The notes under the pieces are model-generated. The model did no database searches. It was not told the DNA's origin and saw only the letters and a list, made by a program, of their open reading frames with translations. Both the position numbers and the translations under genes were made by a program. From positions 840,001 through 872,000 of the forward strand of contig NZ_CP040089.1 in NCBI RefSeq assembly GCF_009617975.1: a DNA stretch of 32,000 nucleotides, written 5' to 3'. Position 1 is the stretch's first letter, and each line of letters starts with the position of its first letter. This DNA comes from Candidatus Nanohalobium constans (GTDB lineage Archaea; Nanohalarchaeota; Nanosalinia; Nanosalinales; Nanosalinaceae). Below are positions 4,610-30,040 of this stretch, piece by piece.

Positions 4610-4690
4610 GTTCATACTCACTTTCTTGGAAAATTGAAAGTGAGTTAGGTTGGTCCTCAGATTTGTGTCTGAGGGACCTAAGTTGTTTTG

Positions 4691-6162
<1,472 letters not shown>

Positions 6163-26135: not shown

Positions 26136-26453
26136 TCAAGCCGTTCCATATTCCTGACCATGCTCTGTTATCTCTTTCATGAAAGATGAATTCTTCATTT
26201 CTTCAAATTCTTCGGTACTAACTACTTTAGGTGAGATGTACACATCTTTCTCAAGCATAATGTCGTAAGATATCTCAAAAACCTTCTCCTTCAAATCCTT
26301 ATCCTCTAAAACAACCAATACATCTACATCACTATCTTTTGTTTCTTCTCCCCGAGCTACACTTCCAAAAAGCAAGACTTTCTGAAGCTCGGACCCAATA
26401 CTCTCGTCTAGGTCATTGAAAAATTTGTTAAAAGCTTTACTGTGAGAGCTCAT
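26136..26453 (-). CDS. Minimal nucleotidyltransferase (MNT-type, TA-associated) without an adjacent HEPN partner
   Basis: The nucleotidyltransferase signature is LFGSVARGEETKDSDVDVLVV. The ATG at 26453 is preferred to the TTG at 26474. Confidence 0.8.
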   Translation of the reverse strand: MSSHSKAFNKFFNDLDESIGSELQKVLLFGSVARGEETKDSDVDVLVVLEDKDLKEKVFEISYDIMLEKDVYISPKVVSTEEFEEMKNSSFMKEITEHGQEYGTA

Positions 26454-26470
26454 ACATAGTAATGTTGCAG

Positions 26471-26489
26471 CCAAGACTTATAGAATTAA
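26471..26489 (-). promoter_or_regulatory. Degenerate copy of the island promoter/leader element
   Basis: CCAAGACTTATAGAATTAA matches CCAAGACTTTTACAATTAA at 29915..29933 at 17/19 positions, with similar spacing to the downstream ATG. Confidence 0.4.
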
Positions 26490-26591: not shown

Positions 26592-26945
26592 TCAGATATT
26601 AGACAGTACCGTATCTTCCACAAGTTTCAGGATTTCTGGCATATACTTCTCCTCAGAAGGCTTTACACCATCTCCTGTATGAACATGGTCTGGAAATGTT
26701 TCAACATCGTGATGCGGCGAGTTATCCCATCTCCTGATCAAATCATTATCTTGGTTCATGAACTGGAACCTGTAATCATGGTTATCAGGCGACTCAAACT
26801 CTGTGAACTCCAATCTAGAACCATCAACAAAAACTATACTTCCCTTAAGCAGAACTGTTGAACCATCAATCCTCTCAAAACTCAAGTCTTGCTCATCAAT
26901 AACATAGTCTAATTCTTCAAGAGTTTCTCTGACCTGTGAAATCAT
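26592..26945 (-). CDS. His-cluster protein T1 of repeated two-gene module (DUF6516/TumE-like by recollection)
   Basis: RRWDNSPHHDVETFPDHVHTGDGVKP. It is paralogous to 28617..29003 and, more distantly, to 29265..29591. ATGA overlap with the upstream partner. Confidence 0.7.
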   Translation of the reverse strand: MISQVRETLEELDYVIDEQDLSFERIDGSTVLLKGSIVFVDGSRLEFTEFESPDNHDYRFQFMNQDNDLIRRWDNSPHHDVETFPDHVHTGDGVKPSEEKYMPEILKLVEDTVLSNI

Positions 26946-27217
26946 TTAATTTCAGCCTTCTCAAGTCTCTCCTTCCTATCCTCCAGTCTCTGAACAGACT
27001 GGTAAACAGCCTTCCACTCAAAATAGTCCTGGTCATCACCTAAATTACCTGACTCAAACTCTTCCAAGAACTCCTCGGAATCCATGTCGTGCTCATCCTC
27101 AAAATCCTCTAATCTTTCTCTAAAACGCTCAAGCTTCCTCTCAACAATATCAAGCTCACGGGACACACTCTCTCTAACAACATCCAAACTACCGTCAGAC
27201 ACATCAACCTCAGACAT
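26942..27217 (-). CDS. Small acidic partner protein A1 of repeated two-gene module (antitoxin position)
   Basis: Starts MSEVDV (ATG at 27217). It carries LEDFEDEHDMDSEEFLEEFESGNLGDD and DYFEWKAVYQSVQRLEDRKERLE, and is paralogous to A2 and A3. Confidence 0.65.
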   Translation of the reverse strand: MSEVDVSDGSLDVVRESVSRELDIVERKLERFRERLEDFEDEHDMDSEEFLEEFESGNLGDDQDYFEWKAVYQSVQRLEDRKERLEKAEIK

Positions 27218-27229
27218 AGAACACAATAG

Positions 27230-27247
27230 GAACTCCAAGACTTTTAC
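27230..27247 (-). promoter_or_regulatory. Island promoter/leader element, copy a (GAACTCCAAGACTTTTAC on + strand)
   Basis: An invariant 17-mer lies 12 nt from the A1 start codon. The minus-sense TAAAAG is centred ~26 nt upstream of the ATG. Confidence 0.6.
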
Positions 27248-27274
27248 CTTTAACGCTAGAAGACCAGGAAAATC

Positions 27275-27586
27275 TCAAATCCTTTTTTCAACTTCTCTTA
27301 GATTTTCTTCCTGATAAAAACCCGGTCTAGGCCCAACCTTATAGATAACATAGTTCTGTCCTTCGACATCAAATATCACTCTGTGATTAAGTTCTCTATC
27401 CCGTCCACGCATAACCTTAATCCTGTAGACATCCAAACCTATATCTTCTCTCTTGATGAAACTCACTTTACTCCAGTCAAGCCCTTTCTCCGGAAGTTTT
27501 TCAATATAAGACTTCAACTTCTTCTGAACATGACCTGGAAGCTGTAAGAATTCTTTCTCAGCTTCACTATTCCACTTAATATCCAT
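27275..27586 (-). CDS. RelE/ParE-family toxin
   Basis: At 103 aa it contains EAEKEFLQLPGHVQKKLKSYIEKL...YRIKVMRGRDRELNHRVIFDVEGQNYVIYKVGPR, the RelE-fold pattern. Its start overlaps the stop of the RHH gene. Confidence 0.75.
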   Translation of the reverse strand: MDIKWNSEAEKEFLQLPGHVQKKLKSYIEKLPEKGLDWSKVSFIKREDIGLDVYRIKVMRGRDRELNHRVIFDVEGQNYVIYKVGPRPGFYQEENLREVEKRI

Positions 27587-27819
27587 TATTCATCAAGACC
27601 TGCTTCTTCCATCACTTCCTCATGACTTTTCAGATCCCCATCTTCTTCCTTCCTCTTCTTCACTTCCTGAAGCTCCTTCTTATTCATCCTATCCCTCAAC
27701 TCGTTCCTAAGGGCTTCTCTCACAAACTCAGATTTACTAGGATAGTTCTCCTCCTCCACAACTTTCTCCACTTCTTTCTCCTGCTCATCCGGAAGCCTAA
27801 CACCAATCGCCATAACCAA
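27586..27819 (-). CDS. Ribbon-helix-helix antitoxin
   Basis: IGVRLPDEQEKEVEKVVEEENYPSKSEFVREALRNEL. Confidence 0.75.
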   Translation of the reverse strand: MVMAIGVRLPDEQEKEVEKVVEEENYPSKSEFVREALRNELRDRMNKKELQEVKKRKEEDGDLKSHEEVMEEAGLDE

Positions 27820-27993
27820 CTATTGTACCACAAGCGTTAAACAAGTTACGACTCGAGAGAATATCTTCAATATAACATTTCATGCGGGCATCACATACTC
27901 CGCATTCCCTCCTCACATGACTAAGCTCTTCTCGAACATCAGACCCAATAACCGGATCGACACTTCTATCGTCCAACAAAGAAAACAAGGGCT

Positions 27994-28353
27994 TCATATT
28001 TCTCGGGTTCTGTACCTGCCGCTTTCTAGAACTGTAATGGAGCCCTTCAAATTTTCCAGGCCTATCTTCAATATACCATTTACAGTTTTCTCTACAATTC
28101 CCGATGCCTGTATAGATGCATCTAACCTGACAATAACTAATCCTTCATAGTTTTCTGTATCATAATGCTCCGGGCTTCCAAACTCTAAATCCCTTGTAAT
28201 TAAAATAGCGTCTTTTTCTACAGCAACTTTGAAAACTTCAGAATCCGGATCACCTTTCCGCTCAAGTTCCCTGATATTCCTGGCTTGAAAACCTTTACTT
28301 CTAAGCTCTTCGGATAAACTATTCGGCAAGTTCTCATCGACTAAGAAATCCAT
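27994..28353 (-). CDS. DUF5615-type PIN-like protein (putative toxin paired with DUF433)
   Basis: MDFLVDENLPNSLSEELRSKGFQARNI...AILITRDLEF. It starts 6 nt downstream of the DUF433 gene stop. Confidence 0.7.
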   Translation of the reverse strand: MDFLVDENLPNSLSEELRSKGFQARNIRELERKGDPDSEVFKVAVEKDAILITRDLEFGSPEHYDTENYEGLVIVRLDASIQASGIVEKTVNGILKIGLENLKGSITVLESGRYRTREI

Positions 28354-28359
28354 TGATAA

Positions 28360-28575
28360 TCAAGCCAGTGAACCAGTCTTCTCTCCCTTCATAAACGAGG
28401 AAGCATAGCGTACAGCAGCCTGAACACCTTCTTTTTCCACACCATACTCACTCTTTATCTCATCAAACTCCATGCCAGCCTCAAGCATACCCAAAACTTC
28501 CTCAACAGTAACCCTAGTACCTTCTATTATAGGCTTACCATGCCGAACATCCTCATCTACAACAACATCAACCAT
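28360..28575 (-). CDS. DUF433-family protein (putative antitoxin/DNA-binding)
   Basis: VRHGKPIIEGTRVTVEEVLGMLEAGMEFDEIKSEYGVEKEGVQAAVRYA. The start is reset to the ATG at 28575. Confidence 0.8.
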   Translation of the reverse strand: MVDVVVDEDVRHGKPIIEGTRVTVEEVLGMLEAGMEFDEIKSEYGVEKEGVQAAVRYASSFMKGEKTGSLA

Positions 28576-28587
28576 GCACAAACAGTT

Positions 28588-28605
28588 GAACTCCAAGACT
28601 TTTAC
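28588..28605 (-). promoter_or_regulatory. Island promoter/leader element, copy b
   Basis: The same GAACTCCAAGACTTTTAC lies 12 nt from the DUF433 start, within the 41-nt gap after the T2 stop. It is followed by TTAACTCAAT, as in copy d. Confidence 0.6.
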
Positions 28606-28616
28606 AGTTAACTCAA

Positions 28617-29003
28617 TCACAGGAAGTTGTTTTCTATATAGTTCAAGGCATCAAGAATCTTGTCAGAGACATTTCCTGAGTCTAAAGGCGTCTCCTTTAC
28701 TTCATCACCTACATGCAGATGATCTGGGAAAGTATCCAAGTCTTCATGATGTGGAGAATTATCGAACCTTACTATATCTTCTCCATCCTGCCAGTGGAAA
28801 GAGTAAATATCCTCAGAGACAAAAACATCGATAAAACCTTCCGACAGGAATATTCTAAGGTTTCTAGGTGTATCACCAGGACTTCTCTCAATAGAAGTAG
28901 ATTCAACCAGGTCAGGAAACTCTTCCTCAACACTTCTCTCAAGTTCAATATACCTTTCTAGAACTGTTCTAGAGTCTCTATCCTCTCCTTGAGGTTCCGC
29001 CAT
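28617..29003 (-). CDS. His-cluster protein T2 of repeated two-gene module
   Basis: VRFDNSPHHEDLDTFPDHLHVGDEVKE. The only in-frame ATG gives a 46-nt overlap with A2. Confidence 0.7.
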   Translation of the reverse strand: MAEPQGEDRDSRTVLERYIELERSVEEEFPDLVESTSIERSPGDTPRNLRIFLSEGFIDVFVSEDIYSFHWQDGEDIVRFDNSPHHEDLDTFPDHLHVGDEVKETPLDSGNVSDKILDALNYIENNFL

Positions 29004-29227
29004 TCAATCACCGCCTCCCAGGCAGGATGTTCATCAACTTCACCTGACTCAACCTGTTTCTCCAACTCACTTAGAGAATCAACACTGTACTCACTCTTCA
29101 ACTCCTTAACCCGTGCACGGCACTCACGCAACTGAGTAGAAATATACGACTCCAAACCCTTACGCAAAACCTCACCACGACTCTCACCAGTAACACTAGC
29201 CACCGACTCAACATCAACCTCAGACAT
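28958..29227 (-). CDS. Small acidic partner protein A2
   Basis: It carries MSEVDVESVASVTGESRGEVLRKGLESYI, VKELKSEYSVDSLSELEKQVESGEVDEH and HPAWEAVIEWRNLKERIETLE. Confidence 0.65.
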   Translation of the reverse strand: MSEVDVESVASVTGESRGEVLRKGLESYISTQLRECRARVKELKSEYSVDSLSELEKQVESGEVDEHPAWEAVIEWRNLKERIETLEQF

Positions 29228-29238
29228 AGAACATAATA

Positions 29239-29255
29239 GAACTCCAAGACTTTTA
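29239..29255 (-). promoter_or_regulatory. Island promoter/leader element, copy c
   Basis: GAACTCCAAGACTTTTA lies 11 nt from the A2 start, within the 37-nt gap after the T3 stop. Confidence 0.6.
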
Positions 29256-29264
29256 TCGGTTTAC

Positions 29265-29591
29265 CTAGACCAAGTCGAATTTATTTTCGAGCATCCGGAA
29301 GAACTGCTCTAAACTGATTTCATCTGATTCAACATGATCTCCCGGATTTTCTATAGGATGAGTATGCCACCCTCCAGTATTGTCGGCTCCAAAGACTCTT
29401 TCCTCATCAACTATGTATGCGAAAGCCACTCTTCCCGTATCAAAGTTTCTGAAAACATCTACAAAACCATCCTCCAGTTTGATACGAGAATCTACAACAA
29501 CACCCTCCTTCATATCAATACTGAAATCCTGTATAAAATCTTTTTCAGCAGCTAAATCAATAATTCTAGAGGAAAACTGTTCTACATTCAT
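29265..29591 (-). CDS. Divergent His-cluster protein T3 of repeated two-gene module
   Basis: FGADNTGGWHTHPIENPGDHVESDE sits at the position equivalent to the T1/T2 motif. It has the same size class and an ATGA overlap with A3. Confidence 0.6.
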   Translation of the reverse strand: MNVEQFSSRIIDLAAEKDFIQDFSIDMKEGVVVDSRIKLEDGFVDVFRNFDTGRVAFAYIVDEERVFGADNTGGWHTHPIENPGDHVESDEISLEQFFRMLENKFDLV

Positions 29592-29899
29592 TCAAGATCT
29601 TCCAAAGCATCTTCTATAACCTTTTTACGGGAAACCAGTCCTTCCCACTCCCAAAAGTCCTTTTCAACTTCGTGAGAATGCTTATCATCAATATTATTAT
29701 CTTCCCATTCATCTTCAAACTCTTCAAAACTCATACCGTATTTTTCTTCAAACCCCTCAATTTGATCCTCTACCTTCCCTAAACGATAGATCATAGCATC
29801 TCTAACAGTAGAACGAACTGCCGAGTCAACACGAGACTCTCCCGTAACATCCTTCAACAGCTTCGCAGTATCGCCGGAAACACTATCAACATCAGACAT
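29588..29899 (-). CDS. Small acidic partner protein A3
   Basis: It carries MSDVDSVSG..., IEGFEEKYGMSFEEFEDEWEDNNIDDK and DFWEWEGLVSRKKVIEDALEDLE. Confidence 0.6.
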   Translation of the reverse strand: MSDVDSVSGDTAKLLKDVTGESRVDSAVRSTVRDAMIYRLGKVEDQIEGFEEKYGMSFEEFEDEWEDNNIDDKHSHEVEKDFWEWEGLVSRKKVIEDALEDLE

Positions 29900-29910
29900 A
29901 GAACATAATA

Positions 29911-29928
29911 GAACTCCAAGACTTTTAC
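29911..29928 (-). promoter_or_regulatory. Island promoter/leader element, copy d
   Basis: GAACTCCAAGACTTTTAC lies 11 nt from the A3 start. The leader AGAACATAATA is identical to copy c. Confidence 0.6.
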
Positions 29929-30040
29929 AATTAACTCAATTAGGCAAACCAGAATTTTTCAGTAGAAAGTTTATCTGAGAATGCGAGCTAAAGAAAAGAG
30001 AAAAGAAAGGAAATTGAAGGAAAGAATTTGGTCGAGAGCT

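Follow-up and report, generated by a model that had tools for sequence, protein, structure and literature searches.

What are the three small gene pairs that lie in the same orientation, within 3.3 kb, on the minus strand of the genome of Candidatus Nanohalobium constans LC1Nh? An earlier note on a 32-kb stretch of this 973,463 bp genome (contig NZ_CP040089.1, positions 840,001 to 872,000; hereafter the window, whose numbering is used throughout) had described the six open reading frames (ORFs) involved as three paralogous copies of an uncharacterised two-gene module, possibly a type II toxin-antitoxin (TA) system. The computational analysis presented here bears out the TA reading and provides it with a family, namely TumE-TumA. 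As such, the three pairs are likely anciently diverged type II TA operons of the TumE-TumA superfamily, housed in a TA island.

All six ORFs were recovered on the minus strand at the positions, and with the overlaps, originally given, and are arranged as three antitoxin-then-toxin pairs. The first comprises A1 (26942..27217; 91 amino acids (aa); WP_153550670.1), assigned as a TumA-type antitoxin gene, and T1 (26592..26945; 117 aa; WP_153550669.1), assigned as a TumE toxin gene. The second comprises A2 (28958..29227; 89 aa) and T2 (28617..29003; 128 aa; WP_153550675.1), the latter again a TumE toxin gene, and the third comprises A3 (29588..29899; 103 aa) and T3 (29265..29591; 108 aa; WP_153550677.1), a divergent TumE-like toxin gene. 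A2 and A3 are considered antitoxin genes of the MJ0235 family that are related to TumA, based on precomputed PF27273 matches and on profile-profile comparisons performed with hhalign, with the assignment of T3 drawing on hhalign and on an AlphaFold2 (AF2) model. The A1/T1 and A3/T3 junctions each correspond to an ATGA overlap, while A2 and T2 overlap by 46 nt (28958-29003), an overlap that is retained, together with the long N-terminus of T2, in orthologues found on two of the contigs used for comparison (L005 and L010). In RefSeq, T1 and T2 are both named "toxin-antitoxin system TumE family protein"; T3, A1, A2, and A3 are all listed as "hypothetical protein".

The assignment of T1 and T2 is the most direct. 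These proteins matched Pfam PF20126 (TumE, formerly DUF6516) with scores of 72 bits (E = 4.1e-20) and 52.9 bits (3.6e-14), respectively, above the gathering score of 23.4 bits, such that the link to DUF6516/TumE, raised in the earlier note, is borne out and agrees with the RefSeq family. NCBIfam TumE (NF045777) was likewise matched by T1 (2.1e-9; 37.4 bits) and T2 (5.8e-8; 32.7 bits), with no match for T3, and a BLASTP comparison of T1 with T2 yielded an E-value of 1.9e-12. In an alignment of 29 T1- and T2-type sequences, R72, D74, N75, T83, F84, P85, H87, and H89 (T1 numbering) were invariant, with Y58, P77, and H78 being near-invariant. The histidine cluster that the earlier note had assigned to all three toxins is present in T1 and T2; the corresponding stretch of T3 reads GADNTGGWHTHPxxNPxxH, and includes neither PHH nor TFP. 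The AF2 model of T1 (pLDDT 93.7) comprises a helix, seven strands, and a second helix, in that order. A search of PDB sequences with T1 returned no significant match.

In the original description of TumE, DUF6516 and its upstream partner were defined as a new TA superfamily, TumE-TumA (Durairaj et al., Nature 2023; PMC10584680). Six gammaproteobacterial pairs showed toxicity and neutralisation by the cognate antitoxin in E. coli, the TumE of Allochromatium tepidum reduced 35S-methionine incorporation, the gammaproteobacterial TumA-TumE complex was modelled with AlphaFold-Multimer, and TumE subclusters were found to differ in their antitoxins, these being diverse and unrelated (PMC10584680). 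Earlier statements that the family is uncharacterised and lacks an established mechanism accordingly no longer apply, in that TumE-TumA is a validated system with a measured effect of the toxin, whose enzymatic activity is putative. Literature searches revealed neither later mechanistic work on TumE nor reports of TA systems in N. constans. The pairs in the window resemble the described system in placing a small partner gene upstream of a toxin of some 110-130 aa, in the predicted toxin fold (T1 and T3, as modelled by AF2), in which a seven-stranded antiparallel sheet is packed against two helices, and, in the case of T1 and T2, in the signature R-x-DN-x-PH...TFP-x-H-x-H. At the same time, they differ in that the host is a nanohaloarchaeon, whereas validation has been limited to gammaproteobacterial pairs (subcluster 1a), in having antitoxins of the MJ0235 type (A2 and A3), and in that T3 falls outside the Pfam model, with its catalytic loop having been shortened and rewritten.

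As to the antitoxins, A1 matched NCBIfam TumA (NF045776) with an E-value of 2.4e-9 and a score of 37.2 bits, residues 34-78 aligning with positions 20-64 of the 76-position model, as did 11 of 11 A1-type orthologues (best E-value, 2e-10). No direct match to this model was obtained for A2 or A3. These two proteins and most of their orthologues carry precomputed matches to PF27273.1 (MJ0235), with none being seen for the A1 type. A2 and A3 were also aligned with DUF7342 (PF24033) at 30.3 and 22.4 bits, respectively, both under the gathering score of 31.6 bits, with only the C-terminal half being covered (approximately positions 70-146 of 150); the N-terminal half of DUF7342 has no counterpart here. 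MJ0235 and DUF7342 are archaeal families of unknown function, and no paper on either was found in a literature search. When the antitoxins were compared with each other by BLASTP, E-values of approximately 1e-4 (A1-A2 and A1-A3) and 0.04 (A2-A3) were obtained, whereas hhalign comparisons of the three subfamilies yielded values of 95.6% (A1-A2), 97.6% (A1-A3), and 96.8% (A2-A3), with E-values of 1e-8 to 4e-12. Given how weak the BLASTP matches were, recognition of the A2-A3 paralogy, like that of T3, required profile methods. For toxins and antitoxins alike, the resemblance is greater than chance would give.

Scans of Pfam and NCBIfam detected no ribbon-helix-helix (RHH), helix-turn-helix (HTH), or AbrB domain in A1-A3, as the earlier note had anticipated, and a PDB sequence search with the antitoxin profile revealed no significant relative. 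Of the central acidic blocks quoted in that note for the three antitoxins, the second belongs to A3 and the third to A2. Acidity as such does not set the antitoxins apart, since the predicted isoelectric points of T1-T3 (4.2-4.35) are as low as those of A1-A3 (4.3-4.6). Acidic proteins are to be expected in the proteome of a salt-in halophile, and the acidity of A1-A3 is thus a property of the proteome, rather than a mark of the module.

Taken as TumE-TumA operons, the pairs would work as follows. Each antitoxin gene is preceded by its own TATA-like box, situated approximately 27 nt upstream of the ATG, from which a probably leaderless mRNA would be produced. The small helical antitoxin is translated first, and the toxin gene, as the sequence shows, is translationally coupled to that of the antitoxin by the ATGA or 46-nt overlap. 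The antitoxin would then neutralise its cognate toxin by direct binding, as suggested by the E. coli assays and the gammaproteobacterial AlphaFold-Multimer model. Upon loss of the antitoxin, free TumE would block protein synthesis, an effect shown only for the A. tepidum protein. TumE would probably do so as an RNase, using the conserved R-x-D-N...H-x-H residues predicted to lie at the edge of the beta-sheet. Judging by their conservation, these residues presumably form the active site, with catalysis being perhaps metal-dependent or else of the general acid-base type; a metal site at the histidine cluster, as proposed earlier, is possible.

Several points weigh against this reading. The RNase activity of TumE was put forward by those who defined the family as "yet-unproven" (PMC10584680), and the validated pairs include no archaeal, T3-type, or MJ0235-type member. 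T1 and T2 miss the equivalog cut-off of NF045777 (90 bits) by a wide margin, as does A1 that of NF045776 (100 bits); by sequence, T1, T2, and A1 are related to the validated proteins at the level of the superfamily, without being their equivalents. With no DNA-binding domain found in A1-A3, classical autoregulation by the antitoxin is unsupported. When the models of T1 and T3 were compared with the PDB using Foldseek, there was no match at E ≤ 0.001, with just weak resemblances to RNase W/FAU-1 and frataxin-like folds being seen (TM 0.3-0.4), in agreement with the original description of TumE (PMC10584680). That the mRNAs are probably leaderless is deduced from promoter spacing alone. Finally, a Pfam scan of T3 and eight of its close relatives returned no match (for T3, none at E ≤ 1), and the PHH and TFP elements that are near-invariant in the T1/T2 family are absent from T3.

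The relationship of T3 to TumE was addressed at the level of profiles. By BLASTP, T2 and T3 were matched at 1e-3 across the N-terminal part alone. In hhalign, the T3 family was linked to the T1/T2 TumE family over 100 columns (93.9%; E = 1.6e-7), and a profile of 69 T3-type sequences led to the same TumE family (90.3%; E = 1.4e-6). A directed hmmsearch linking T3 to the TumE family scored 14.4 bits (E = 1.5e-6 at Z = 1), and a precomputed PF20126.5 match is on record for one orthologue of T3. The AF2 model of T3 (pLDDT 94.9) presents a helix, five long and two short strands, and a second helix, and the T1 and T3 models share the same predicted secondary structure order when compared element by element. 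As judged from the hhalign alignment, which agrees with the strand prediction, R65, D70-N71, and H76-x-H78 are retained in T3, with the D, N, H, and H being invariant in a combined alignment of 36 sequences that includes the T3 type. What differs is the loop preceding the HxH strand, which comprises 5 residues in T3 as compared to 12 in T1 and T2, such that the absence of the PHH and TFP elements can be ascribed to shortening of this loop. In the T3 branch, GGW replaces the PHH...TFP loop and a conserved NPxxH loop is gained after the HxH strand; G68, W75, P79, and H86 are new near-invariant residues of the T3-type proteins.

This branch is not a small one. When 1.84 billion representative proteins were searched with a profile, 355 T3-type clusters were obtained at E ≤ 1e-3, and 152 when the threshold was tightened to E ≤ 1e-10, yet only 1 of 69 full-length T3-type proteins is matched by Pfam TumE (E = 0.0023). 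Together with the hhalign result obtained with the 69-sequence profile, this places T3 in a sizeable and essentially unannotated sister branch of TumE. T3 is therefore filed here as TumE-like and not as a PF20126 member, the link being at the profile-profile level only. The GGWHTHP stretch of T3 resembles the JAMM motif GW(Y/I)H(S/T)HP; a JAB/JAMM identity was rejected, as PADLOC offered only a JAB match with an E-value of 0.02 and Foldseek found no JAB fold match.

Such divergence raises the possibility that A3/T3 is no longer a TA pair, with the T3 branch having lost the catalytic loop and adopted a non-toxic role, such as metal or ligand binding via WHxHP...H. This scenario could account for the near-absence of Pfam TumE matches, for the loss of PHH and TFP and the appearance of new near-invariant residues, and for the non-significant frataxin-like resemblance that was the best found for the T3 fold. 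On three contigs (L007-L009), moreover, an A3/T3-type pair sits between housekeeping genes for a biotin carrier and methylmalonyl-CoA mutase. In every context examined, however, T3-type genes retain the antitoxin-upstream layout and ATGA coupling to an MJ0235/TumA-type partner, while T3 itself keeps the R, DN, and HxH residues and has the same predicted fold as T1. The JAMM-like match is non-significant. We therefore regard loss of the TA function as clearly unlikely; T3 is probably still a toxin, possibly one of altered specificity.

If the three pairs are TA operons, then antitoxin- and toxin-like genes should travel together. Indeed, the A-upstream-of-T layout recurs in five independent contexts. 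In L005, an A2-like and a T2-like gene overlap by 46 nt, as do A2 and T2 in the window, and L006 carries an A1-like/T1-like pair joined by ATGA. In L010, DUF433-DUF5615, A2-T2, and A1-T1 follow each other in direct adjacency, while in L011 A3-T3 stands alone, adjoining NUDIX and Zip genes. The fifth context is provided by L007-L009, contigs of 52% GC in which a T3-like gene sharing 37% identity is ATGA-coupled to an MJ0235-like gene; this distant pair lies at L007:3696-4339 (and also in L008 and L009), flanked by the biotin-carboxyl-carrier and methylmalonyl-CoA-mutase genes. Since these contigs come from other environments, the T3-type branch reaches well beyond nanohaloarchaea.

The same comparisons speak to the age of the copies. 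The earlier note had seen in them a threefold amplification under diversifying selection, i.e., a recent local expansion driven apart as in the case of immunity genes. The presence of three co-oriented copies within 3.3 kb, with nearly identical 5' ends, gives this view some appeal. The paralogues, however, are only approximately 25-35% identical, whereas orthologues of each subtype in other nanohaloarchaeal assemblies share 55-98% identity, with dN/dS values of 0.07-0.28 for toxins and antitoxins alike (Nei-Gojobori). Moreover, near-identity is limited to the promoter/5' block, which is also carried by an unrelated DUF433 operon (see below). Recent diversifying amplification is thus very improbable; because each subtype has its own orthologues and is under constraint, the copies are old paralogues subject to purifying selection.

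Cassettes have nonetheless been rearranged. The window, L010, and L004, the latter two being Nanohalobium-like contigs, each have their cassettes in a different order. In L004 (4797-5140), an orphan A2-like antitoxin gene ends with the tail of A3 (VSRRKVIEDAK), and this A2/A3 chimera is followed by a remnant of the T3 C-terminus (LEEFLTEVDEKFFS, ending in a stop), showing recombination and decay among the paralogous modules. In L010 (1908-1960), an A1-like gene was found that lacks the canonical ATG (ATT TCT GAG GTT GAT GTG...) but retains an intact promoter block; here, the gene caller placed the start at a downstream GTG.

Beyond the nanohaloarchaeal assemblies, relatives of T1 (DUF6516/TumE) were found on cyanobacterial and haloarchaeal plasmids; the plasmid collection contained no relatives of T3. 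At haloarchaeal plasmid loci such as those of Natrarchaeobaculum sulfurireducens pAArc-Mg-01 and of a Halobacterium noricense plasmid, TumE shares approximately 40% local identity with T1, yet the toxin gene comes first and the partner is a 164-172-aa winged-helix regulator of the HVO_A0114 type, unrelated to A1-A3. DUF7342 had been considered as the haloarchaeal partner of TumE, an idea not confirmed once the plasmid partners proved to be HVO_A0114 regulators. The reversed gene order and different partner indicate that TumA/MJ0235 is one of several antitoxin solutions.

A comparison with PADLOC brings in a further reading. A1 matched M44A (8.7e-10) and T1 and T2 matched M44B (4.6e-10 and 5.7e-8, respectively) of the phage-defence candidate PDC-M44, a two-gene architecture; the regions aligned are those also covered by NCBIfam TumA and TumE. 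The pairs may hence serve mainly in abortive infection, and not as addiction or stress TA systems, with a virus removing or titrating the antitoxin, such that TumE then stops translation. Clustering with other TA- or defence-like genes, including an MNT gene (PDC-S09; 7.5e-22), and the differing cassette content of related strains are in keeping with such a role. Yet PDC-M44 is a candidate and not a validated system, without a match to A2, A3, or T3, and a literature search uncovered no paper on it; a search of IMG/VR viral contigs for TumE relatives bearing the pattern R[WFY]DN[SA]PH[HY] returned none, and the window is devoid of virus-related genes. On this evidence, anti-virus defence as the principal role appears rather unlikely. 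It would in any case be compatible with the pairs being TumE-TumA operons.

The setting of the pairs was examined as well. The three operons belong to a 3.8-kb island of six operons, all on the minus strand, between the L18e/L13 ribosomal protein genes and an S-layer gene: A3-T3, A2-T2, a DUF433 gene (ATG at 28575) paired with a DUF5615/PIN-like gene (27994..28612, including a promoter block at 28576-28612; assigned by Pfam), a gene for a RelB-like RHH antitoxin (77 aa) with that for a 103-aa partner (27275..27819), A1-T1, and an orphan gene for an MNT-type nucleotidyltransferase (26136..26482, including its upstream block; ATG at 26453). The RelB-like operon is preceded by a plain TTTAAC box, without the block shared by the others.

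This shared promoter/5' block, also on the minus strand, is found upstream of A1 at 27218..27248 (GTAAAAGTCTTGGAGTTCCTATTGTGTTCT), where the TATA-like box is centred approximately 27 nt from the ATG, upstream of A2 at 29228..29258 (ATAAAAGTCTTGGAGTTCTATTATGTTCT), upstream of A3 at 29900..29936 (ATTGAGTTAATTGTAAAAGTCTTGGAGTTCTATTATGTTCT), and, in partial form, ahead of the MNT gene (TATAAGTCTTGG). It spans approximately 30-47 nt and heads five of the six island operons. The motif T[AT][AT]AAGT[CT]TTG[AG] occurs five times in the window, where 0.10 occurrences would be expected, and all five copies (26471-26482, 27235-27246, 28593-28604, 29244-29255, and 29916-29927) head island operons, preceding the starts of A3, A2, DUF433, A1, and MNT by 23-29 nt. 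For A1-A3, 28-29 of 32 upstream positions are identical, even though the proteins share only approximately 30% identity, and the identity continues to the ATG and through ATGTCTGA(G/T)GTTGAT. The MSEVDV N-terminus previously listed as a trait of the antitoxins belongs to a block that is conserved as DNA and reaches approximately 30 nt 5' of the ATG. The A3 and DUF433 promoters have a further 29 of 30 nt in common upstream. A spacing of approximately -27 is the usual distance of a TATA-like box from the transcription start in Archaea, and a box so placed relative to the ATG is why the mRNAs are probably leaderless. A four-codon upstream mini-ORF (ATGTTCTATGTCTGA) was considered and set aside, as neither the DUF433 copy nor L004 conserves it.

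The two Nanohalobium-like contigs each carry their own version of the block, with four copies in L010 (110-1925) and five in L004 (2872-5430). In the latter, these head UPF0175/DUF3368, DUF433/DUF5615, the orphan A2-like gene, a second DUF433 gene, and MNT (a remnant, 38 nt upstream). Unrelated cassettes within a genome share 26-29 of 32 promoter positions, as compared to 21-27 of 32 for orthologous cassettes between genomes, indicating that the block evolves in concert within a genome. In the more distant nanohaloarchaeal loci L005, L006, and L011, the block is reduced to an equally spaced TTTAA box and an ATGTC(T/C)GAGGTTGATGT start. In L004 (2900-3142), the UPF0175 antitoxin, whose partner is a DUF3368 PIN-like protein, begins with MSEVDSVS, encoded by ATGTCTGAGGTTGAT. 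As this gene shares its first codons and promoter block with the TumA-type genes, the 5' module seems to have been exchanged between unrelated antitoxin families. A scan of genome contigs for the block gave three chance matches (this collection evidently does not include N. constans), and a scan of metagenome contigs for the block plus ATG gave 39 single-copy matches, none with an MSEVD start and apparently random.

What the block does can be proposed only tentatively. It could serve as a shared operator, with a single trans-acting factor co-regulating the unrelated TA families TumA/TumE, DUF433/DUF5615, UPF0175/DUF3368, and MNT, or it could be a homology patch for cassette shuffling, conversion, and deletion within the island; it may also simply be a strong promoter that has been locally homogenised. 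As a candidate cis signal, it can be written as T[AT][AT]AAGT[CT]TTG[AG] plus approximately 15-20 nt to the start codon. That it is a dedicated cis signal of nanohaloarchaeal TA cassettes, going beyond a core promoter, is conceivable but doubtful, and much the same can be said of the separate suggestion that the T3-type GWHxHP branch forms a toxin family in its own right, directed at a separate target.

Some neighbouring features deserve mention. The MNT gene (26136-26453, minus strand) matches the MntA antitoxin model (1.1e-8) as well as PADLOC PDC-S09 and has no HEPN partner; in the related contig L006, four tandem MNT-HEPN pairs are present instead. The 103-aa partner of the RelB-like RHH protein belongs to no Pfam, NCBIfam, or PADLOC family, its resemblance to RelE3 being non-significant (E = 0.55), and may represent an undescribed toxin family; in L005, the same pair of RHH and unassigned 104-aa genes follows the TumA/TumE pair. 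Elsewhere in the window, a complete archaeal 16S rRNA gene is located at 4689-6161 (minus strand) with no adjoining 23S gene, such that the rRNA genes appear to be unlinked.

TumE-TumA is a known system, and the new elements reported here are modest, namely the assignment of A1-A3 and T3, the link between MJ0235 and TumA, the T3-type branch, and the promoter block that evolves in concert. Their main value lies in the correction of annotation, with A1, A2, and A3 being nameable as TumA-type antitoxins and T3 as a TumE-like toxin. The connection of MJ0235 and of the C-terminal part of DUF7342 to TumA gives these families a testable role as antitoxins of TumE, and the altered loop around the putative active site of T3-type proteins could help in finding the catalytic centre of TumE. 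For the organism, the island means that at least five complete TA pairs are maintained next to each other in the 0.97-Mb genome of an obligate ectosymbiont, with promoters evolving in concert that offer a small natural system for addressing cassette turnover and co-regulation in archaeal TA islands.

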